DNA of 32,000 nt from Pseudomonadota bacterium (GTDB taxonomy: Bacteria; Pseudomonadota; Alphaproteobacteria; UBA2136; UBA6156): NCBI GenBank assembly GCA_016125035.1, contig WGMN01000001.1:4617-36616 (forward strand), written 5' to 3'. The notes below the pieces were generated by a model. That model was not told the origin of the DNA. It saw only the letters and a program-made list of their open reading frames with translations, and did no database searches. The position numbers and the translations under genes were made by a program. Numbering within the stretch: position 1 is the first letter of the stretch; each line of letters begins with the position of its first letter. Below, one piece after another: positions 3,481-15,077 of this stretch.

Positions 3481-3804
3481 TTAAAGCTTGATTTGCACGT
3501 CAACGCCGGAAGCGAGGTCGAGCTTCATCAGCGCATCGATGGTTTGCGGGGTGGGATCGAGGATCTCCAGCACGCGCTTGTGGGTGCGCATCTCGAAGTG
3601 CTCGCGCGACTTCTTGTCGATGTGGGGGGAGCGCAGCACGCAGAAACGCTCGATGTTGGTGGGCAGCGGAATGGGCCCTTGCACCTTGGCGCCGGTGCGC
3701 TTGGCGGTTTCTACGATCTCGATGGTGGATTTATCGAGCATGCGGTAATCGTACGATTTCAACCGGATGCGGATGTTCTGCGCGGCTTCGACGGGCGTGG
3801 CCAT
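3481..3804 (-). CDS. rpsJ: 30S ribosomal protein S10
   Basis: [39 protein letters not shown]...RTHKRVLEI is canonical S10. The start is taken at [10 protein letters not shown] (3804), preceded by GGGAGGAATCCTTCGCC. The longer ORF-track N-terminus is not S10-like. Confidence 0.95.
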
Positions 3805-3857
3805 GGCGAAGGATTCCTCCCTTTGGTGCGTGCCCGAATGCCGAACGGGTAGAGGCG

Positions 3858-3905
3858 CCTTATTAACACAATAAGCCAAACCCTTGATAAGCCTTGGGTT
3901 TGGCT
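3858..3905 (-). promoter_or_regulatory. Hairpin plus U-rich tract in the rpsJ 5' leader (possible attenuator)
   Basis: The minus strand reads AGCCAAACCC-12 nt loop-GGGTTTGGCT, a perfect 10-bp stem (3874-3905), followed by TATTGTGTTAATAA. It lies between the predicted promoter (3966-3994) and the rpsJ SD. Confidence 0.35.
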
Positions 3906-3965
3906 GGACCGATAGGTGGCATTTTTCCGGTCCGAAATACAGCCCTGCAGTGCAGGTGTGGGCGC

Positions 3966-3994
3966 GGTATAGGGCGGATGGCGGGGAGTGTCAA
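3966..3994 (-). promoter_or_regulatory. Predicted sigma70-type promoter of the S10 operon
   Basis: Minus strand: TTGACA (3994-3989), 17-nt spacer CTCCCCGCCATCCGCCC, TATACC (3971-3966), then GC-rich discriminator GCGCCC. The extended -35 context CCCTTGACACTCCCC is identical to that of the rpoB promoter. Confidence 0.6.
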
Positions 3995-4040
3995 GGGAAA
4001 AGGGGCGGAAATGTTGGCGTGGCGGAGAGGTGCTGCGGCG

Positions 4041-4136
4041 CAGGCGGCAAAAGGCGGCGAAACGCTGCGGTGGGGCGGCAGAAAAGCGGCAAAAAGCGGC
4101 GAAAGGGCGGCAAGGGCGGGGCAAAAGCGGCGGAAC
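4041..4136. repeat. Degenerate ~10-bp tandem repeat (RGCGGCRAAA) giving helically phased A-tracts
   Basis: The region reads aggcggcaaa aggcggcgaaa ... gggcggcagaaa agcggcaaaa agcggcgaaa gggcggcaa gggcggggcaaa agcggcggaa. A-run centres lie near 4050, 4061, 4083, 4093, 4103, 4112, 4124 and 4134. Confidence 0.6.
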
Positions 4137-4137
4137 A

Positions 4138-4230
4138 CTGCGACAGCAGCAGGCCGCATGCGAGGAGCGTGGACCTGCGTCGTGCTTGCGAGGGCCGGGC
4201 CCGCGACGGTGCTATGGCCGGAGGCCAAAA
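4138..4230 (+). repeat. Copy A of a ~92-bp imperfect direct repeat (conserved ends, variable core)
   Basis: The 5' block ctgcgAcagcagcaggccgcatgcgagg (4138-4165) and 3' block ggtgctatggccggaggcca (4208-4227) recur at 4643-4669 and 4711-4730. Confidence 0.7.
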
Positions 4231-4441
4231 CTCTGGCGTTGACTGTTGGCGCAGAAACCCGATAGTTAAGCCGTGGCGAAAGCCATGGGGCGTAGAAACC
4301 TCTAGACAAGCCAACCCGTGTGTCGGGGAGGCGGTTAATATAACAAGCTGCGAGGCTGAATAGCCGCGCCATTGTCTAGATGGTTCTAACTCCCCGGCTC
4401 TCTCTTGAGGGCCGTTGTTTTTAACAACAAGGGAGATGATT

Positions 4442-4546
4442 ATGAGAGATTGGTGCTGGCTTTTGACACGGCGGGCGGTGGTGGGGATTTTGGTGATGTT
4501 GGGGTTTTGGTGTGTGGTGGCGGGGGTGGTTTGGGTTTGGTGGTGA
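4442..4546 (+). CDS. Candidate small hydrophobic peptide (34 aa, MRDWCWLLTRRAVVGILVMLGFWCVVAGVVWVWW)
   Basis: ATG at 4442 is preceded by AAGGGAG with a 7-nt spacer. The product has a positively charged N-terminus followed by one Trp/Val/Gly-rich TM-like helix, with TGA at 4544-4546. It is below the ORF-track size cutoff and no promoter was identified. Confidence 0.3.
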   Translation: MRDWCWLLTRRAVVGILVMLGFWCVVAGVVWVWW

Positions 4547-4642
4547 GGCCCCATAGACGGTGCGACGGAGTGAACGGGGGGCGGGGGGCGGTAGCCCCCA
4601 GCATCAAAGGGGGGATTGGGGGGAACCCCCACGAGGCCGTCG

Positions 4643-4733
4643 CTGCGCAGCAGCAGGCCGCATGCGAGGCCAGCCGTTTTGCCAGACGAAGGCGGCAAAA
4701 CGGCTAGGCCGGTGCTATGGCCGGAGGCCACAA
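4643..4733 (+). repeat. Copy B of the ~92-bp imperfect direct repeat
   Basis: It shares both end blocks with copy A. The core forms a 16-bp stem (GGCCAGCCGTTTTGCC / GGCAAAACGGCT(A)GGCC, 4668-4710) that is absent from copy A. Confidence 0.7.
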
Positions 4734-4757
4734 TACGGCTTAGAGGCCACATTTCGC

Positions 4758-4786
4758 TTGACTTTTGCCACAAGTTCACCTATGAA
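4758..4786 (+). promoter_or_regulatory. Predicted sigma70-type promoter of the plus-strand cassette
   Basis: TTGACT (4758-4763), 17-nt spacer, TATGAA (4781-4786), about 70 nt upstream of the 4855 ATG. A weak 5-bp hairpin plus T6 (4798-4816) lies in the leader. Confidence 0.5.
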
Positions 4787-4854
4787 TTGTCATAGTCGCC
4801 GCGAGGTGGCTTTTTTGTTGGAATCAGTGCAACTGGCGGTGGTAGAGTGGCTTC

Positions 4855-5412
4855 ATGAAGAAGGTGATGGTGCTTGGTTTGGTGGTGGCCGCGCAGGTGG
4901 GGTGGGCGGATACACCGTTGGATATCAAGTACGGTGCCAATGAGATAGACCTGAATAACGACGGCGTGAAGGACCTGATTGTGCGGGTGCGGTGGGATAA
5001 CTTGAATGCGCACTCGTTTGATAAGTACCTGGTGGCCTTGCGGCTTGGAAAAGAAAGCGGGGAAGAGCCGGTTCTTTACGACGTGCCAATTGGAAAGAGC
5101 GCCGGTTATGACCATCCCTTGCTGATGACCGAAGAAGCGGCGGATTGCGCCACTAAAGATGATAAAACCATTCACCTTGGGTACATGTTTAGCCTTGATA
5201 AACGCGGCTACTTGCAGATTACGGAGTTTAACCGGATTGAGAAGGAGCCCGCGGATAACTACCCGGTTGAAGTAACAACCTACCGGTTAACCCATGCGGG
5301 GGTGGATAAGGAAATTGGGGTTTTGCCAGGTGATCCGATTTGGTATTTGAAAGAAGTGAAGGAGGTGAGGGCTCAGCGCAGGGTATGTGATGTGAGAGAG
5401 TTGATGAGGTAG
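4855..5412 (+). CDS. Secreted protein of unknown function (signal peptide; DxNxDGxxD motif)
   Basis: 185 aa. The N-terminus MKKVMVLGLVVAAQVGWA/DT looks like an SPase I signal. IDLNNDGVKDLIV resembles FG-GAP/EF-hand-like Ca-binding loops. There are two Cys in the mature part. GC is visibly lower than in the flanks. Confidence 0.8.
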   Translation: MKKVMVLGLVVAAQVGWADTPLDIKYGANEIDLNNDGVKDLIVRVRWDNLNAHSFDKYLVALRLGKESGEEPVLYDVPIGKSAGYDHPLLMTEEAADCATKDDKTIHLGYMFSLDKRGYLQITEFNRIEKEPADNYPVEVTTYRLTHAGVDKEIGVLPGDPIWYLKEVKEVRAQRRVCDVRELMR

Positions 5413-5424
5413 TTGGTTAAGATC

Positions 5425-5453
5425 AACGGGCGGGCCGGGTGGCCCGTTTTTTT
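5425..5453 (+). terminator. Intrinsic terminator-like hairpin between cassette genes 1 and 2
   Basis: CGGGCC-gggt-GGCCCG (5431-5446), or alternatively AACGGGC...GCCCGTT, followed by T7 (5447-5453). It lies 13 nt after the gene-1 stop and just before the gene-2 SD (GGGGAGG). Confidence 0.6.
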
Positions 5454-5469
5454 ATGGGGAGGTAAAGAG

Positions 5470-6120
5470 ATGGTTCAGTTTAAGTGGCACACCGCAGGCT
5501 CGGATACATGCTTTAAGTGTGCGAGGTGGGAGGCGCGCATTTTCAAAAATTTGGGGGAGGTTCCCGAATTGCCGGTGCATCCGAATTGCCAATGTTTTAT
5601 TGAAGCTTTGACTGAGGACGACCTCAAGAAACTGGCGGAGGTGGGCAGACAATTGGAAGCGGGCTCGGCGGAAGTGGAGGAAGGGATAGCCCAATTCTCT
5701 CTTTACAGTGGCCTTTCCTATCTTCTGGAGCGCTTGGTTTCAGCCGCAAAAGAGCTTTTGGGAGAGCTTTTACAGATAAGCCAGACGTTTGAGATATTTC
5801 GGCAGAACTATGACGCCATGAAAAAAGCAAACACCATCGGAGCCGACAAATACTTTCACTCCAAGGCAAATGCCGAGGCGGCGCAACTGGGGGTAATAGG
5901 CGAAGCGACAGCGAAGTTTATAAGTGATTTCAGAGAGTTTTATGAGTACTATACGAATGTTCACCTTAAGGGGATGTCTTTAAAAGCTACGATTGAAGAC
6001 ATGAACGCCGACCAGCGGGCAAACTACAGGGGACGGGTGAGAGGGCGTCAGTTTCCTGACCGTGATGCCGGTGAACTGGTTAAAGACCAACGACCGAATG
6101 GATTGGGTGAGAAATACTGA
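5470..6120 (+). CDS. Fusion protein: MuF/SPP1-gp7-type zinc knuckle (N-terminal) + helical linker + serum amyloid A (SAA)-like domain (C-terminal)
   Basis: The start is taken at MVQFKWH (ATG 5470), 8 nt after GGGGAGG. The N-terminus is WHTAGSDTCFKCARWEARIFKNLGEVPELPVHPNCQC. The C-terminus NYDAMKKANTIGADKYFHSKANAEAAQLGVIGEATAKFISDFRE...ADQRANYRGR...RPNGLGEKY* matches human SAA1 motifs [25 protein letters not shown]...ISDARE...ADQAANEWGR...RPAGLPEKY*. Confidence 0.85.
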   Translation: MVQFKWHTAGSDTCFKCARWEARIFKNLGEVPELPVHPNCQCFIEALTEDDLKKLAEVGRQLEAGSAEVEEGIAQFSLYSGLSYLLERLVSAAKELLGELLQISQTFEIFRQNYDAMKKANTIGADKYFHSKANAEAAQLGVIGEATAKFISDFREFYEYYTNVHLKGMSLKATIEDMNADQRANYRGRVRGRQFPDRDAGELVKDQRPNGLGEKY

Positions 6121-6476
6121 TGTCTAGACTTCTGGCGCATGTGGCCCGTGTGGTTGCCGTGGTGATGCTGGCTGCCTATTTGCTCCTGCTGGTGCATATT
6201 CCCCTGTTGGCGGGAGAGCCGAATTGGGTGCTGGGAACATGGCTCGGCATCGGAGTGGCTGTGCTGGGGGTGGGATGTTGGCTTGTTTATGCCTTTTCAT
6301 GGCGCAAGTTTGCCGTGTGGTCGGTTCTGGTAATAGCAATGCACGGAATGGTTTGGTGGGTGCCCGCAGTGAGGGGTCCTTTCGCCCACGATTCATGTCT
6401 GGACAGAGGCGGGAAGTGGTATGCGGATGGAACTTGCGAAGGAGCACGGATGCCTTCCCCGAGCACCACCCCCTAG
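6120..6476 (+). CDS. Small integral membrane protein (about 3 TM helices plus Cys-containing C-terminal tail), translationally coupled to the SAA-like gene
   Basis: 118 aa. The start ATG overlaps the upstream TGA (TGATG at 6118-6122). There are three hydrophobic segments, then HDSCLDRGGKWYADGTCEG. Confidence 0.7.
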   Translation: MSRLLAHVARVVAVVMLAAYLLLLVHIPLLAGEPNWVLGTWLGIGVAVLGVGCWLVYAFSWRKFAVWSVLVIAMHGMVWWVPAVRGPFAHDSCLDRGGKWYADGTCEGARMPSPSTTP

Positions 6477-6498
6477 AGGGAAGCTGGGGTTAAAAAGC

Positions 6499-6519
6499 AA
6501 GGGGCCCATGAGGCCCCTT
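6499..6519. terminator. Bidirectional terminator hairpin between the cassette and rpoC
   Basis: AAGGGGCC-catga-GGCCCCTT, a perfect 8-bp stem. On the minus strand it is followed by GCTTTTTAAC, downstream of the rpoC stop at 6537. Confidence 0.6.
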
Positions 6520-6536
6520 CCCTTTCCGATTCAGCG

Positions 6537-9500
6537 TTACTGAATCTCGGGCGTCACGTCCTTGGCCAGGGCGCCGTGGCGCATGTGGCGCAGCAGGCGG
6601 CCGGTACCGGCCGGGATGAGGCGGCCGACGATGACGTTCTCCTTGAGGCCGTTGAGCCCGTCTTGCTTGCCCATGGTGGCGGCTTCGGTAAGCACGCGCG
6701 TGGTCTCCTGGAACGACGCGGCGCTGATGAAGCTGCGCGTGGTGAGCGACGCCTTGGTGATGCCCTGCAGGTGCAGTTCATATTCCGCAGGCACTTTGCC
6801 CGCCAGCACCAGTTTGGCATTCTCCTCGCGCACCTCGAACAGGTCGGCCATTTCGCCGTTGACGAAGGTGCTCTCACCCGGCTTGGTGATCATCACCTTT
6901 TGCAGCATCTGGCGGATGATCGTCTCGATGTGCTTATCGTTGATCTCCACACCTTGCAGGCGGTAGACCTCCTGGATCTGGGTGACCATGTAGTCGGCCA
7001 GCGCCTCGATGCCCTGGGCCTTGAGGATGTCGCGCGGATCGATGGCGCCTTCCACCAGCATTTCGCCGGCTTCGATGTAGTCGCCCTCGCGCACGTTGAG
7101 GTGAATGCCCTTGGGTACCAGGTACTCGCGCTGTTCTTCCTCGCCGTTATCCAGCTTGGAGTTGACCAGGATGCGGCGCTTGCCTTTCAGGTCTTTCCCG
7201 AAGGCCACGATGCCGGGGACTTCGTTGAGAATTGCCGAGTCCTTCGGTTTGCGGGCCTCGAAGAGTTCCGCCACGCGGGGCAGACCCCCGGTGATGTCCT
7301 TGGACTTCAGCGTTTCCTTGGGCATACGGGCGATGATATCGCCGGCCTGGATGGTGGCGCCGTCATCCACCGTGAGGATGGCGCCGACCGGCAGCGCATA
7401 GACCGCCTGGGAGCCGTTGGGCAAGGTGACGATCTTGCCCTTGGCATCCATGAGGATGATGGCGGGCTTCATGTCGGCGGCGCGGGCGGATTGCTTCCAA
7501 TCCAGCACCACGCGCGAGGTCATGCCCGAGGTCTCGTCGGTCTTTTCCTGCACGGTGACGCCTTCCTGCAGATCGAGGAAGTGCACCACGCCCGCCGTTT
7601 CCACGATAATGGGAACGGTGTAGGGATCCCAGTCGGCGACAGTGGCACCGGCCTTGAGCTTGGCGCCATCCTTGACCGCCAGGCGCGCGCCGTAGGGCAG
7701 CTTGAAGCTTTCGCGCTCGCGGCCCGCGTCGTCGACCAGTTTGGCCTCGGCGTTACGCGACATGACGATGGCTTCGCCTTCGCCGTTGGTGACGGTAATG
7801 ACACCTTCCAGCTTGAGCGTGCCGTCGCGGCTGACCTCGGCCTTGGATTGCACGGTACCCGCCGCCGCCGCACCACCGATGTGGAAGGTACGCATGGTGA
7901 GCTGGGTGCCGGGTTCGCCGATGGATTGCGCGGCGATGACGCCAACCGCCTCGCCGATGGTGACCGGCGTGCCGCGGGCAAGATCGCGCCCGTAGCAGGC
8001 GGCGCAGATGCCGTCGGTGTTTTCACACGTGAGCGGGCTGCGGATGGCCACGCGCTCGATGCCGGCCTTCTCGATTTGGGCCACCAGCGCTTCATCGATG
8101 ATGGTGCCGACCGGGCAGATGACGTTGCCGGTGAGCGGGTCGAGGACCTCGTGCGCGGCGGTACGGCCGAGGATACGCTGGGACAGCGGCTCGACGATGT
8201 TACCGGCCTGGGTGATGTCTTCCACCACGATGTGGCGCTCGGTGCCGCAGTCTGGCGAGGTGATGACGCAGTCTTGGGCGGCATCCACCAGGCGGCGGGT
8301 GAGGTAACCGGCGTTGGCGGTTTTAAGCGCGGTATCGGACAGCCCCTTACGCGCGCCGTGGGTGCTGATGAAGTATTGCAACACGGTGAGGCCTTCGCGG
8401 AAGTTGGCGGTAATCGGCGTTTCGATGATCTCGCCGTTCGGCTTGGCCATCAACCCGCGCATACCGGCGAGCTGGCGCATCTGCGCGGGGGAACCACGGG
8501 CGCCCGACGTGCTCATCATGTAGATGGAGTTGATGCTGGGTTGCACCTTCTCCTCCGCCGTTTTGCCCTTGCCGACGGTGATGGGCTGGTCGCCAATGGC
8601 CTTCATCATCGCGGCGGCGATGGCGTCGGAGGTGCGTTGCCAGATATCGACCACCTTGTTGTACTTTTCGCCAGAGGTGATGAGACCTTCCTGGTATTGT
8701 TGCTCGAACTTGCGGACTTCACTTTCCGCGAACTCCACCATCTTGGTTTTGTTCTCGGGGATGACCATGTCGTTCTTGCCGAACGAGATGCCGATCTTGG
8801 CGGCAAAGCGGAAGCCGAGTTGCATCAGCCTGTCGGCGAAGATGCAGGTCTCCTTCTGACCGCAGGCCAGGTAGACCTCGTGGATGAGGCGGCCCACTTC
8901 TTTTTTGGTCATGACCTTGTTGACCGCTTCGAAGCCGAGCTTGTTGCTCTCTGGCAAAATGGAGCCCAGGTAGGCGCGGCCCACCGAGGTATCGTAGGTT
9001 TTGCCGCGGTAGCGGTACTTGATGCGCGTGTGCAGGGTGACCGCCCGGTTCATCAGCGCGTGCTCGAGCTCGCCGAGGTCGGCGAACAGGGAGCCTTCGC
9101 CCGGCAGGTTGTAGCGCGCCAGGGAGATCCAGTAGAGGCCGAGAATCATATCCTGCGAGGGAACGATAACCGGTTTACCATCAGCGGGTTTGAGGATGTT
9201 GTTGGTGGACATCATCAACACGCGGGCCTCGATCTGCGCTTCCAAGCTCAGCGGCACGTGGACGGCCATTTGGTCGCCGTCGAAGTCCGCATTAAAAGCG
9301 GTACAGACCAGCGGGTGCAGTTGGATGGCCTTGCCTTCCACCAGCTTGGGCTCGAACGCCTGGATACCCAGACGGTGCAGGGTGGGCGCGCGGTTGAGCA
9401 GCACGGGGTGCTCGCGGATGACTTCTTCCAAAACGTCCCACACCACGTCTTCCTGGCGTTCCACCATTTTTTTGGCGGCCTTGATGGTGGTGGCTTCGCC

Positions 9501-10667
9501 ACGCATTTCCAGCTTGTGGTAGATGAAGGGCTTGAACAGCTCCAGCGCCATGGTTTTGGGCAGGCCGCACTGGTGCAGCATGAGATCCGGCCCCACGGTG
9601 ATGACCGAACGGCCGGAGTAGTCGACCCGTTTGCCGAGCAGGTTCTGGCGGAAGCGGCCTTGTTTGCCCTTGAGCATGTCGGCGAGCGACTTCAGCGGGC
9701 GCTTGTTGGCGCCGGTGATGACGCGGCCGCGGCGGCCATTGTCGAACAGGGCATCCACGGATTCTTGCAGCATGCGCTTTTCGTTGCGCACGATGATCTC
9801 CGGCGCGCGCAGTTCGATGAGGCGCTTCAAGCGGTTGTTGCGGTTGACCACGCGGCGGTAGAGATCATTCAGGTCCGACGTGGCGAAGCGGCCGCCGTCG
9901 AGCGGGACCAGCGGGCGCAGTTCCGGCGGCAGCACCGGGACGACGTCCATGATCATCCACTCCGGCTTGTTGCCGGAATCCAGGAACGCATTGACCATTT
10001 TGAGGCGCTTGACGATCTTGCGGCGGCGCAGGTCTGACACATCCTCGGTCAGGTCGGCGGAGAGCTCGGCCTGCAGCTTGGGCAAATCCAGCGAGCGCAG
10101 GATGTTGCGCAGGGCTTCGGCGCCGATCTGTGCGGTGAAGCTGTCTTCGCCGAATTCTTCCACCGCCTGGTAGTACTCTTCCTCATTGATGAGCTGGCCC
10201 TGGGTGAGCGTGGTCATGCCGGCATCCACCACCACCCATTTCTCGAAGTAGAGGATGGCCTCGAGGTCTTTCAGCGTCATTTCCAGAAGAGCGGCCATGC
10301 GCGACGGCAGCAGCTTGAGGAACCAGATGTGCGCGACGGGCGCGGCGAGCTCGATGTGGCCCATGCGCTCACGGCGCACTTTGGATTCAATGACTTCCAC
10401 GCCGCACTTTTCGCACACGATACCGCGGTGCTTCATGCGCTTATATTTGCCGCACAAGCATTCGTAATCCTTAACAGGGCCGAAGATGCGGGCGCAGAAG
10501 AGCCCGCCGTGCTCTGGCTTGAAGGTGCGGTAGTTGATGGTCTCCGGCTTTTTCACTTCGCCGAAGGACTGGGCACGGATTTGTTCCGGGCTGCACAGCG
10601 AGATGCGGATGGCATCGAACTGCTTGGCCACGGGCTGTTGCTGGAACATGTTCATTAAGTTGTTCAT
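6537..10667 (-). CDS. rpoC: DNA-directed RNA polymerase subunit beta'
   Basis: 1376 aa with zinc-binding [23 protein letters not shown], catalytic [12 protein letters not shown], and bridge-helix/trigger-loop regions. AAGGAA SD lies upstream, 15 nt after the rpoB stop. Confidence 0.99.
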
Positions 10668-10682
10668 GGTGCGTTCCTTACC

Positions 10683-13600
10683 TTAGGCGTTGAAGTCTTC
10701 AGTGATGCGGTGCAGGCCGGGGCGCGAGCGGCGCGGGCCGCCTTGCGCCTGGGCTTGCTGCTCCAGCAGACTGGGCTGGCGACCGATATCGGTGCGGAGA
10801 TCGGGGCCTTCGCCGGTTTCCACCAGGTCGACGTTCAGGCCCAGGGATTGGATTTCCTTGACCAGCACGTTGAACGACTCGGGGATACCCGCCTCGAAGT
10901 TGCTTTCCCCACGCACGATGGCTTCGTACGTTTTGGTACGGCCGGAGACGTCATCTGACTTGATGGTGAGCATTTCCTGCAGGGTGTAGGAGGCGCCATA
11001 GGCTTGCAGCGCCCACACTTCCATTTCCCCAAAGCGTTGGCCACCGAACTGGGCCTTACCGCCGAGCGGCTGCTGGGTGACCAGCGAGTACGGCCCGATG
11101 GAACGCGCGTGGATCTTCTCATCCACCAGGTGGTGCAGCTTGAGCATATACATGATGCCGACCGTGCTCTTCTGCTCGTACGGGTCGCCGGTGCGGCCGT
11201 CGAACAGCTGGGTTTTGCCGGACTCATCGCAGCCGGCCACCTTGAGCAGGCCGGTGATGGCGTCTTCAGGCGCGCCGTCGAACACCGGGCAGGCCACTGG
11301 CAGGCCGCGGCTGAGGTGCCCGGCCATTTCGACGATTTCGGCGTCCGACAGGTCTTTGAGCGAGCTGACGGTGCCTTTGTCTTCATACAGGCTTTCCATG
11401 TACTTGCGCAGGGCCTTGGTATCCGGCTTTTTGCCGCCGGCCTTGGCCTCGGCCAGAAGCTCCGCCACCTTGCGGCCGATGCCGTAAGCGGCCCAGCCCA
11501 GGTGGGTTTCCAGGATTTGGCCGACGTTCATCCGGCTGGGCACGCCCAGCGGGTTGAGCACCATATCCACCGGACGGCCGTCTTCCAGGAAGGGCATGTC
11601 CTCCAGCGGGTTAACCTTGGAGATGACCCCCTTGTTACCGTGGCGGCCGGCCATTTTATCACCCGGCTGCAGCTTGCGCTTAACGGCGACGAAGACCTTG
11701 ACCATTTTGAGCACGCCCGGGGGCAACTCATCGGCTTGGCGGATCTTGGCCGTTTTTTCATCAAACCGCTTCTTCAGCGCGGTGAGCGATTTATCCAGCG
11801 CGGCGCGCAGGGTTTCGATGTCGCGTTGGGCTTTGTCGCCAGCCACGGAGATGGACCACCATTCGGTCGGCTTCATCTCGTCGAGCACGTCGGCGGTGAT
11901 CTCTTTGCCTTTGGCGAGTTTGCCGGACTTGGCGGCGGTTTTCTCCTTGATGAGGAGCTTGCGCAGGCGGTCGTAGGCGTCGGCCTCGATGATGCGGCGC
12001 TCGTCCTCGATGTCCTTGGTGAGGCGGGCGACTTCGGCGGATTCGATCTCGAGCGTGCGGGTGTCTTTTTCAGCGCCGCGGCGGTTGAAGATCTTGACGC
12101 CGACCACGGTGCCGTTGACGCCCGGCGGCAGGCGCAGGGAGGTATCACGCACATCGGCGGCCTTCTCGCCGAAAATGGCGCGCAGGAGTTTTTCTTCCGG
12201 GGTCATCGGGCTCTCACCCTTGGGGGTGATCTTGCCGACCAGGATATCGCCGGCCTTGACCTCGGCGCCCACGGCGATGATGCCGGCTTCGTCGATGCTG
12301 CGCAGGCCTTCTTCGCCGACGTTGGGGATATCGCGGGTGATCTCCTCGCTACCCAGTTTGGTATCACGCGCCATCACCTCGAATTCATCGATGTGGATGG
12401 AGGTGAAGATATCCTCGCGCACGATGCGCTCGGAGATGAGGATACTATCTTCGAAGTTATAGCCGTTCCAGGGCATGAAGGCGACCACCACGTTGCGGCC
12501 CAAGGCGAGTTCGCCGAGCTCGGTGGACGGGCCGTCGGCGATGACGTCTCCCGCTTTGACCGTATCGCCGATGCGCACCAGGGTTTTCTGGTTCAAGCAG
12601 CTGCTCTGGTTGGAGCGTTGGAACTTGGTGAGGCGGTAGATATCCACGCCCGATTGGCCGGATTGCACGCCGGAGGTGGCACGCACCACGATGCGCGAGC
12701 CGTCGACGCTTTCCACCACCCCATTGCGGCGGGCGACGGTGGTAATGCCGGAATCACGCGCCACGGTGGCTTCCATGCCGGTACCCACCAGCGGGGCATC
12801 GGTGCGGATGAGCGGCACCGCCTGGCGTTGCATGTTGGAACCCATCAAAGCGCGGTTGGCGTCGTCGTGCTCCAGGAACGGAATGAGCGCCGCGGCGATG
12901 GACACCACCTGTTTGGGCGAGACGTCCATGTAGGTGACTTCCGAGCTGGGCATCAGCAGGGTTTCGCCCTGTTTGCGGCATTCCACGAAGTCGTCCTTCA
13001 GCGTGGATTTTTCGGTCAGTTCGGTGTTGGCCTGGGCGATGGTTTCGCGGCCTTCCTCGATGGCGGACATGTAGACCACTTTATCGGTGACCTTGCCGTT
13101 TTCCACCTTGCGGTACGGGGTTTCAATAAACCCATACTTGTTGATGCGGGCGTAGGTGGCCAGGCTGTTGATAAGACCGATGTTCGGGCCTTCAGGCGTT
13201 TCGATCGGGCAGATGCGGCCGTAGTGCGTGGTGTGCACGTCGCGCACTTCAAAGCCCGCGCGCTCACGCGTGAGACCGCCGGGCCCCAGGGCGGAGAGGC
13301 GGCGCTTGTGCGTGACTTCCGACAGAGGGTTGGTCTGGTCCATGAACTGGGACAGTTGCGAGGAGGCAAAGAACTCACGCAGCGCGGCAGACAAGGGGCG
13401 GCTGTTGATGAGGTCATTGGGCATCATGTCGCCGATTTCGGTGGAGCCCATGCGCTCTTTGACCGAGCGCTCCATGCGCAGCAGGCCGATGCGGACCTGG
13501 TTTTCCATCAGCTCGCCCACCAGGCGCACGCGGCGGTTGCCCAGGTGGTCGATGTCATCGACCGGCTCGAAGCCGTCGCGGATGCGGTGCAGCGCGCGCA

Positions 13601-15077
13601 GGGTTTCTACAAAGTCTTCGCGTTGCAGGATGCGTTGGTCATCCGGCGACTTCAGGCCCAGGCGGGCGTTGAGCTTCATCCGGCCCACGGCGGAGAGATC
13701 GAACTTATCGGTATCGAAGAACAGGCCGTTGAACAGCTTGGTGGAGGTTTCCACCGTCGGCGGTTCGCCGGGGCGCATGACCTTATAGATCTCCACCAGC
13801 GCTTCTTCAGGGCTGTTGGTTTTATCCACCTGCAGGGTGTTGCGGACGTAGGCGCCGACGTTGAGGTGATCGACCTTGAGGATCTTGAACTCCTTCATGC
13901 CGAGCTTTTCCACCGCGGCGAGCACTTCGTCGGAGACTTCGGTACCTGCCTCGAACAGCACCTCGCCGGTTTCCTTATCCACCAGGCTTGTGGCGAGGAA
14001 GCGGCCCTTGAGATCTTCGTTGGTTTGGGCCACCCATTTGACGCCGGCTTCCTGCGCCTGGCGGATCTGGCGGCGGGTGGGCTTTTTGCCGGCTTCGGCG
14101 ATGACCTTGCCTTTATCGGCATCGACCAGGTCGGCGGCCAGTTTGACGCCTTCATAGAACATCGGCTCGAAGGCCAAGGCGTAGGTGCCGGTGAGTTCCA
14201 CCGCCACGGGCACGGCCTTTTTGGCCTTGACCGACTTGGTCTTGGTAACTTTGGCGGGCTTCTCGGCCTTGGCTTCTTTGCCCTTAGTGGCCTTCTTGGC
14301 CTTTTTGGGGGCTTCTTCTTCCGCTACCGGCTCTTCCTTCTTCGGCTTGGCCTTGCCCGGAGTGACGCGGACGGAGACTTTGTCGTAGTAGGTATCGATA
14401 ATTTCCTGCGTGGAGAGGCCCAGCGCGCGCAGCAGCACGGTGGCCGGCAGTTTGCGCTTGCGATCGATGCGCACGTAGATGTTGTCTTTGTGGTCGAATT
14501 CGAAATCCAGCCAGGAGCCGCGGATGGGAATGACCCGCGCGGTGTAGAGCAGTTTGCCGCTGCTGTGGGTGGTGCCGTCATCGTGGCTGAAGAACACGCC
14601 CGGGGAGCGCTGCATTTGCGAAACCACCACGCGCTCTGTACCATTCACGATGAAGGTGCCGTTGGAAGTCATCAAAGGCACGTCGGCCAGGTAGACCTCT
14701 TGCTCTTTGATATCCTTGACCGAGCGGGCGCCGGTGGCGTGGTCGACATCCCAGATGGTGAGGCGCAGGGTGACGCGGCAGGGCGCGGCGAAGGTGAGGT
14801 CGCGCGTGCGGCATTCGTCGATATCGTACTTGGGCTCTTCCAGGCGGTAGCCGAGGTAGTCGAGTTCGGCGATGCCGGCGTTGTCCTTCATCGGGAAGAT
14901 GGAGTTGAACGCGCCGTCGAGCGTGTAGAAGGTGGTTTTGCTGGTCTTCTTCTCTTGCAGGAAGAGATCGTAAGAAGCTTGCTGCATTTCCAGCAGGTTG
15001 GGGATGGACGCCACGCTGGCCAGGCGGCCAAAATTTTTGCGAATGCGCTTGCGCTCGGTGAAAGACAGGTTGGACAT
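10683..15077 (-). CDS. rpoB: DNA-directed RNA polymerase subunit beta (with Lys/Ala-rich insertion at aa ~240-290)
   Basis: 1464 aa starting [17 protein letters not shown]. It contains conserved blocks ([29 protein letters not shown]). SD AAGGGGAG lies 8 nt before the ATG. Confidence 0.99.

Follow-up and report, generated by a model that had tools for sequence, protein, structure and literature searches.

What is a relative of vertebrate serum amyloid A (SAA) doing in a bacterial gene, joined to a piece of a phage head protein and lodged between ribosomal-protein and RNA-polymerase genes? The question is raised by the open reading frame (ORF) at positions 5470-6120 of the window, by which we mean the whole 32,000-nt stretch of DNA analyzed here. 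Our results indicate that this ORF and the one that follows it (6120-6476), referred to below as toxin and immunity genes after their predicted roles, are probably the two genes of a polymorphic toxin-immunity cassette, of the MuF / prok-SAA / Imm-SAA type that has already been published. In the mechanism that we favor, (i) the N-terminal MuF stub, a remnant of about 45 residues of a head protein of the SPP1 gp7 / Mu gpF type, would most likely be a handle for trafficking, packaging or release, (ii) the SAA (Lipocone) domain, whose catalytic positions are intact, would act from the periplasm on an envelope lipid by attacking its phosphate-linked head group (by analogy with TelC, probably that of an undecaprenyl-linked cell-wall precursor), (iii) the immunity protein, with three helices as its anchor in the inner membrane, would neutralize the toxin through a disulfide-capable periplasmic tail, and (iv) the cassette would have been acquired horizontally, the window copy residing outside any prophage.

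The SAA domain is the firmest part of this assignment. The sequence-only reading, made before the present analysis, had placed the gene correctly at 5470-6120 and had aligned its C-terminal part by eye with vertebrate SAA; the ORF starts with an ATG at 5470, has a Shine-Dalgarno motif in front and ends with a TGA at 6118-6120. Pfam SAA (PF00277) scores 69 bits over residues 110-216 (E 5.2e-19; gathering threshold 30.8) and is covered from profile position 14 to 102 of 102, which is far beyond chance; SAA chains of the Protein Data Bank (PDB) are detected with E values from 5e-13 to 6e-06 (phmmer), and a fish SAA is 35% identical (BLASTP, E 3e-17). An AlphaFold 2 (AF2) model built from 23 homologues, with a mean predicted local distance difference test (pLDDT) score of 81 and of 88-96 over the SAA part, shows helices there at residues 82-120, 126-138, 142-166, 171-194 and 200-203. 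Human SAA1 and mouse SAA3 account for all of its seven top PDB matches (target-normalized template modelling (TM) score 0.87-0.91, root-mean-square deviation (rmsd) 1.8-2.5 Å), and the next match has an E value of 0.17.

Conservation within the bacterial family points in the direction of an active domain. Across the 23 homologues D126, Y128, F129, H130, K132, R155, E156, D181, N185, G188 and R189 are invariant, and the C-terminal ...RPxGLxxKY end is kept. According to Burroughs, Nicastro and Aravind (eLife 2025; PMC12419801, cited throughout from the parts of its text and supplement that were searched), the active SAA-Wnt clade of the Lipocone superfamily is defined by a histidine in H2, an aspartate in H4 and an sNxxGR motif in H4, and the SAA clade is predicted to act on lipid head groups as a phosphoesterase or transferase. 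The toxin has all three elements, namely H130, D181 and A184-N185-Y-R-G188-R189, each of them invariant in the homologues.

Vertebrate SAA (Met-SAA) and the window toxin share the fold, the DKYFH...ADQ.AN..GR...RP.GL..KY core and 33-35% identity, but the former is a secreted stand-alone protein of ~104 residues that has a signal peptide and lacks both an N-terminal module and an immunity partner. The toxin has no hydrophobic N-terminus and carries its SAA domain behind 96 other residues, which sets it apart from vertebrate acute-phase SAA. The absence of a signal peptide, proposed earlier from the translation, and of any hydrophobic segment agrees with the hydropathy values, the highest Kyte-Doolittle mean over 19 residues being 0.81 and that over windows starting at residues 1-12 being -0.3. 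It could be argued that the bacterial protein is, like vertebrate SAA, a non-toxic binder of lipid, retinol or lipoprotein that serves the membrane physiology of its own cell, and its fold does match that of SAA3 crystallized with retinol. We regard this as highly improbable: the missing signal peptide speaks against it, as do the conservation of catalytic-type residues, the pairing with an immunity-like gene in 25 loci, the existence of RHS-fused SAA versions and the finding that the same N-terminal module bears other envelope-degrading cargoes in place of SAA. Among the roles that the sequence-only reading had left side by side (binder, effector or toxin), the toxin is the one that the genomic context supports.

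The first element of that context is the gene directly downstream. Its 118-residue product has three hydrophobic segments (about residues 3-34, 36-61 and 64-84) followed by a tail, ...HDSCLDRGGKWYADGTCEG..., in which D91-S-C93-L-D95-R-G-G-K-W...C106 can be recognized. The N-terminus is positively charged, as is the loop between the second and third transmembrane segments, which would place this tail in the periplasm. The pairing is conserved, since the ORF directly 3' of the toxin gene encodes one or three transmembrane helices and then D.CLD.G plus further cysteines in 25 related loci; relatives of the immunity protein that are detectable by BLAST are encoded by the ORFs of loci L005, L001 and L004.

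Much of this has been described before. The prok-SAA family was defined, and described as a polymorphic-toxin tip, in PMC12419801, whose context network holds MuF with a C-terminal Prok-SAA in 19 cases and with a downstream Imm-SAA in 14, whose Prok-SAA sequence table prints the 111-residue SAA domain of MBI1308243.1 (the accession of the window toxin), and which cites Zamocky and Ferianc 2023 for having reported SAA homologues in bacteria before. The family, the MuF + Prok-SAA + TM-Imm-SAA architecture and this very protein are already catalogued there, and the earlier statement that the architecture was uncharacterized has to be withdrawn. In domain, motifs and gene pair nothing essential differs between the prok-SAA of that paper and the window pair, and the three transmembrane segments directly after a prok-SAA toxin fit its 'TM+[TM+TM+]Imm-SAA' entry. 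The window locus thus adds no new category. In the text and supplement parts of PMC12419801 that were searched, we did not find a MuF cut to its last ~45 residues, a non-prophage locus, or an alphaproteobacterial immunity tail with two cysteines instead of four.

The N-terminal stub connects the toxin to phages. Its five cysteine and histidine positions are invariant in 23 full-length homologues and in 118 more distant knuckle-bearing proteins, so that the motif noticed in the single sequence is a conserved one, and they would be expected to bind zinc. The more distant proteins come from a profile search with the knuckle that returned 971 clusters among 1.84 billion representatives; 118 relatives were scanned for domains and the best 150 representatives were used to position the knuckle. 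PF04233 (Phage_Mu_F) matches in 52 of the 118 scanned relatives; in a separate scan, relatives with the same knuckle reach 28.8-30.1 bits against its gathering threshold of 29.6. PHROG head-morphogenesis and minor-head families match residues 1-57 of the toxin itself at E 1e-4 to 0.1. A 50-residue AF2 model of the knuckle (pLDDT 84) finds in BFVD almost exclusively minor capsid, head morphogenesis, MuF-like and GpF-like proteins (TMq 0.65-0.74, rmsd ~2 Å). The closest link is provided by IMG/VR viral contigs, which encode proteins of 323-327 residues with the C-terminal end ...CKWHAEPSACKICLE...VDDVPDLPVHPNCRCSISAWH. The last ~45 residues of such a minor head protein of 327 residues are 43% identical to residues 5-46 of the toxin (pairwise E 9e-11); 435 phage records hold a match to this phage protein, which is annotated 'minor head protein' and adjoins a 'portal protein' in Lactobacillus phage records among the matches listed. 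As MuF minor head proteins end with the matched part, the toxin appears to keep only the last ~45 of ~320 MuF residues, and its N-terminus is, as judged by this alignment, a fragment of the MuF domain and not the whole domain.

Other searches with the stub were less informative. The 57-residue knuckle found only four weak matches among INPHARED phages (tblastn, E 4e-3), and the phage link is clear only via the IMG/VR loci and the full-length phage protein. The knuckle profile gave chance matches only against PDB sequences (E >= 1), that is, no solved structure by sequence, and the whole toxin model gave local knuckle matches only against viral structures. The linker between stub and SAA domain contains modelled helices at 49-75 and 82-120, with pLDDT values of 48-67 over residues 51-90; matches of this linker to the exonuclease VII small subunit (NCBIfam, E 7e-4, 19 bits against a cut-off of 77) were discarded as noise of helical composition.

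The argument for toxicity comes from what is attached to the knuckle and to the SAA domain elsewhere. Among the 118 relatives scanned, the cargo is SAA in 36, Peptidase_M23 in nine, Phage_lysozyme in eight, GH108 and Peptidase_M15_3 in three each, Lipase_3 in two, and a VgrG3-like C-terminal domain (VgrG3_C), Tlde1 and YkuD in one each. All identified cargoes target the cell envelope, which fits an immunity protein that faces the periplasm. Conversely, the SAA domain lies at the C-terminus of RHS-core proteins in Bacteroidota and other phyla (proteins P0035, P0045-P0048 and P0051; loci L041, L044, L046, L049, L052, L055 and L057), with a gene for a lipoprotein of ~125 residues next downstream; we read these lipoproteins as the toxins' own immunity partners. 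The proposal of the sequence-only reading that SAA occupies a variable cargo position is therefore well supported from both sides, and because SAA tips RHS proteins and the same knuckle precedes other envelope-targeting domains, a toxin role is the one we assign to the window protein.

In two Candidatus Enterousia genomes, stub proteins with housekeeping neighbors (L045 4581-5708 and L050 4581-5786) have an N-terminal region of ~140 residues, the MuF stub and then Phage_lysozyme or GH108 plus PG_binding_3; a PG_binding_1 + Tlde1-like protein is encoded near the stub gene at L045 7268-8008.

The diversity of cargoes also bears on delivery, as the locus poses the question of how a MuF fragment could deliver a toxin outside a prophage. 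One answer, which we put forward tentatively and consider rather doubtful, is that the stub might be an autonomous delivery tag for chromosomal, non-prophage envelope effectors (SAA/Lipocone, lysozymes, M23, M15, lipases, Tlde1) that are packaged in trans into capsids, be it of a co-resident phage, a gene transfer agent or a similar particle, or exported by an unrecognized route. If true, this would extend the notion of 'MuF toxins' well past prophage-encoded Firmicute nucleases, and would give a tractable bacterial system to test the SAA fold as an enzyme.

The surroundings of the related genes are of two kinds. In the melainabacterial locus L031 (2974-7699) the order is portal gene, MuF-SAA toxin of 338 residues, Imm-SAA-like ORF, ORF of 104 residues and large terminase gene, a prophage packaging module that looks like the ancestral context of the MuF-SAA family. 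Most other copies examined have housekeeping neighbors (Era, uridine kinase, ArgRS, SerRS, Lgt, ThyX). Two settings indicate mobility: in L001 (5355-6846) the cassette immediately follows the tmRNA gene, and in L003 (563-11288) it lies inside an element with integrase, HTH_17 (AlpA), primase-zinc-ribbon and AAA_25 genes that adjoins an NgoFVII-type restriction-modification system. Because relatives sit in such places and because the GC content of the window falls to ~0.50 around the cassette, marking a foreign islet, horizontal acquisition is the origin that we favor.

Against this background the window protein might be seen as a virion-associated entry enzyme, carried in the phage head and ejected with the phage DNA to open the wall or membrane locally, while the downstream protein merely protects the lysogen. 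Lysozyme, GH108, M23 and M15, the other cargoes of the stub, are typical of virion-associated lysins, the L031 copy does lie within a packaging module, and full-length as well as stub relatives occur in IMG/VR viral contigs. Nonetheless, no phage genes were found near the window copy among the ORFs scanned, most relatives examined likewise have housekeeping neighbors, a translationally coupled and co-varying immunity gene is a hallmark of toxin systems, and the same SAA domain is found on RHS proteins with immunity lipoproteins of their own. We therefore judge an entry enzyme to be unlikely.

The shortness of the stub and the non-phage context suggest another possibility: a prophage MuF toxin may have lost its N-terminal ~270 residues, and the cassette would survive as a decaying or selfish remnant, either an addiction-like pair or a silent relic, whose stub no longer serves delivery. 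A terminator-like hairpin directly upstream, with no promoter found, and a broken toxin frame in L005 would agree with it. However, the window toxin ORF is intact, with a good Shine-Dalgarno motif and a coupled immunity gene; stub-only proteins are common, the knuckle lying within the first 30 residues in 94 of the best 150 representatives (some of them possibly truncated gene calls) and behind an extension of ~95 residues in 31; and homologues at 40-57% identity retain every putative zinc ligand, which argues for purifying selection on the stub. A remnant of this kind is thus improbable in our view, even if some copies of the cassette are decaying, as discussed next.

Several reasons for caution apply to the toxin-immunity assignment itself. 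First, the immunity tail has only the cysteines C93 and C106, as compared with the four 'absolutely conserved' ones that stabilize a helix and four strands in Imm-SAA (PMC12419801). Alphaproteobacterial tails are short in general, with two cysteines in L005, L001 and L003 and only the first kept in L014, and melainabacterial tails have four or more; we read the two-cysteine tail as a probable truncated variant of Imm-SAA. In addition, the toxin gives no Pfam Phage_Mu_F match, even with its N-terminal 57 or 76 residues alone and E values up to 10, and the matches of its relatives are confined to profile positions ~57-111 of 112. The earlier assignment to MuF/gp7 stands on homology to phage minor head proteins, on PHROG, on the fold matches in BFVD and on the Pfam matches of relatives, but not on a Pfam match of the toxin itself. 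Besides, a terminator-like hairpin lies directly 5' of the toxin gene and a search for a promoter before the gene found none. No phage genes were found among the window ORFs scanned, which include no portal, capsid, secretion-system or lysis gene, and no delivery route is visible there. The closest genomic relative, L005 (5001-5985; 54% identity), has a disrupted toxin frame beside an intact immunity gene for three transmembrane helices: the frame ends after 118 residues, whereas similarity can be followed as far as residue 216. The toxin may be frameshifted, with its immunity gene left as an orphan, or the break may come from a sequencing error; if the frame is truly broken at least some copies are decaying. 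Finally, the literature holds no experimental test of any prok-SAA protein in the parts of PMC12419801 consulted, and no later experimental paper was found.

Comparison with characterized systems helps to place the cassette. MuF toxins of temperate phages have been described as exclusively prophage-encoded and mainly from Firmicutes, more than half of them carrying nuclease domains, with an immunity argument that assumes cytosolic targets (Jamet et al., BMC Biol 2017; PMC5576092). The window toxin resembles them in having an N-terminal MuF-derived module and a variable C-terminal toxin domain common to other polymorphic toxin families, and the window pair in having an ORF of fewer than 150 residues directly downstream (here 118 residues, overlapping the stop codon); the relative in L031 shares with them the position after the portal gene. 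In contrast, the window toxin is chromosomal, between rpsJ and rpoC of a Proteobacteria metagenome-assembled genome (MAG), with CarG-like and rpsJ genes upstream and rpoC downstream in place of a portal gene and packaging module, and it has a MuF stub only and a cargo predicted to target the envelope.

For the predicted activity the nearest precedent is TelC of Streptococcus intermedius, the only characterized Lipocone toxin, a lipid II-cleaving enzyme whose activity is confined to the outside of the cytoplasm (Whitney et al. 2017, via PMC12419801). The enzymatic step is proposed here because of this analogy, with added support from the conserved catalytic positions. TelC/TipC and the window pair belong to the same superfamily, and TipC works on the outer side of the membrane; TelC, however, is from a different Lipocone clade, is a Gram-positive toxin delivered by the LXG/type VII secretion route, and has an immunity protein of unrelated fold (PMC12419801, as far as consulted). 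The window pair can also be compared with a bacteriocin. Colicin M works alike, being small, without signal peptide and cleaving lipid II in the periplasm, and its immunity protein Cmi has an inner-membrane anchor and a disulfide-stabilized periplasmic domain; colicin M differs from the window toxin in its unrelated fold, FhuA/TonB uptake and plasmid location.

Serum amyloid A is a major clinical marker of inflammation whose molecular function is still debated. Bacterial relatives that act as toxins with periplasmic immunity would support the proposal, already published, of SAA as an enzyme attacking bacterial envelope lipids or as the descendant of one, and the window locus, as a compact and clean example (216 residues, coupled immunity gene), is suited to a first biochemical test of this proposal. 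Table 1 collects the features of the locus.

Table 1. Coordinates of the cassette, its predicted domains and motifs, and the adjoining signals (positions in the window; aa, residues of the toxin)
Feature	Position	Strand	Description and basis
Toxin gene (predicted role)	5470..6120	+	216 aa; 100% identical to GenBank MBI1308243.1 (Proteobacteria MAG)
Shine-Dalgarno GGAGG	5458..5462	+	7 nt 5' of ATG 5470; direct sequence reading
Terminator-like GC hairpin with T-run	5428..5457	+	9-bp stem, 6 G-C pairs, tail TTTTATGGGG
MuF stub, putative beta-hairpin zinc knuckle	5470..5604	+	aa 1-45; invariant ligands, phage homology, fold matches
Putative stub ligands C14, C17, H37, C40, C42	5509-5511, 5518-5520, 5578-5580, 5587-5589, 5593-5595	+	alignment
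Helical linker	5605..5757	+	aa 46-96; sequence and length vary among homologues; poor alignment conservation
Prok-SAA (Lipocone) domain, predicted toxin domain	5758..6117	+	aa 97-216; four-helix cone and short fifth helix; profile and fold
H2 motif DKYFH (H130, nt 5857-5859)	within 5758..6117	+	invariant in homologue alignment
R155-E156	within SAA domain	+	invariant in homologue alignment
H4 motif D181...A-N185-Y-R-G188-R189	6010-6036	+	invariant in homologue alignment
Immunity gene (predicted role)	6120..6476	+	118 residues; ATG overlaps toxin stop in TGATG
GC hairpin	6499..6519	-	in the 60-nt gap between immunity stop and rpoC stop; minus-strand terminator score
Low-GC islet	4800..6200	.	GC 0.48-0.53 vs 0.60-0.65 in flanks; between rpsJ and rpoC

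ATG 5470 is the right start of the toxin, and not TTG 5413, because the homologues begin with the same M-x-x-[FY]-K-W. The upstream hairpin separates the toxin gene from an unrelated gene that ends at 5412; as it fills the space before the ATG and leaves no room for a promoter, expression would probably depend on read-through or on an unrecognized promoter. Downstream, the hairpin between the immunity and rpoC genes may be shared as a terminator by both convergent units. On one side of the cassette lie the minus-strand genes rpsJ (3481-3879), rplC, rplD and rplB, which form the start of the S10 operon, and on the other rpoC (6537-10667) and rpoB (10683-15077), also on the minus strand, which form the end of rpoBC; the flanking products identified are S10, L3, L4, L2, RpoC and RpoB. 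No tRNA or tmRNA integration site was found in the window, and an Rfam scan of the whole window at gathering thresholds gave no match.

Besides the cassette, the islet contains one unrelated gene (4855-5412, plus strand), whose product of 185 residues has a signal-peptide-like N-terminus and matches the Pfam CarG-like family (carbapenem intrinsic resistance protein) with 30.6 bits against a cut-off of 28. It was considered as a part of the cassette and rejected, given that no homologue of it was found in any of 59 related loci and that the terminator-like hairpin separates it from the toxin gene.

Further variation was seen among the longer melainabacterial toxins (L006-L031), which have an extra conserved C-D/N-C pair 10-35 residues past the knuckle, for example 'ELCDCW' or 'RCDCLDDL', and many of which have an N-terminal extension of ~95 residues ending in 'LKGGIS'; both the pair and the extension are missing from the window toxin. 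In the flanks, the genes rpsL-rpsG-fusA-tuf, which usually sit between the rpoBC and S10 operons, are absent between rpoC and rpsJ (3481-10667), where the order is rpoC, islet, rpsJ.

The ~1 kb between rpsJ and the islet (3880-4855) has no convincing ORF and contains G-rich repeats of 41-42 nt (4031-4146). At 4322-4406 on the plus strand it matches Rfam sRNA-Xcc1 over the full length of the model but below threshold (39 bits, gathering threshold 53; E 4e-5 in a 1-kb search), a family associated with integron cassettes and mobile elements; the match overlaps a 17-nt inverted repeat (4293-4309 / 4372-4388) and is followed by a terminator-like hairpin (4395-4414). The same region holds two copies, 503-504 nt apart, of an element of ~90 nt with near-identical ends, CAGCAGCAGGCCGCATGCGAGG (100%) and CGGTGCTATGGCCGGAGGCC (96%), and different interiors, the second copy having an unusually stable fold on either strand (z -3.5 to -4.0).

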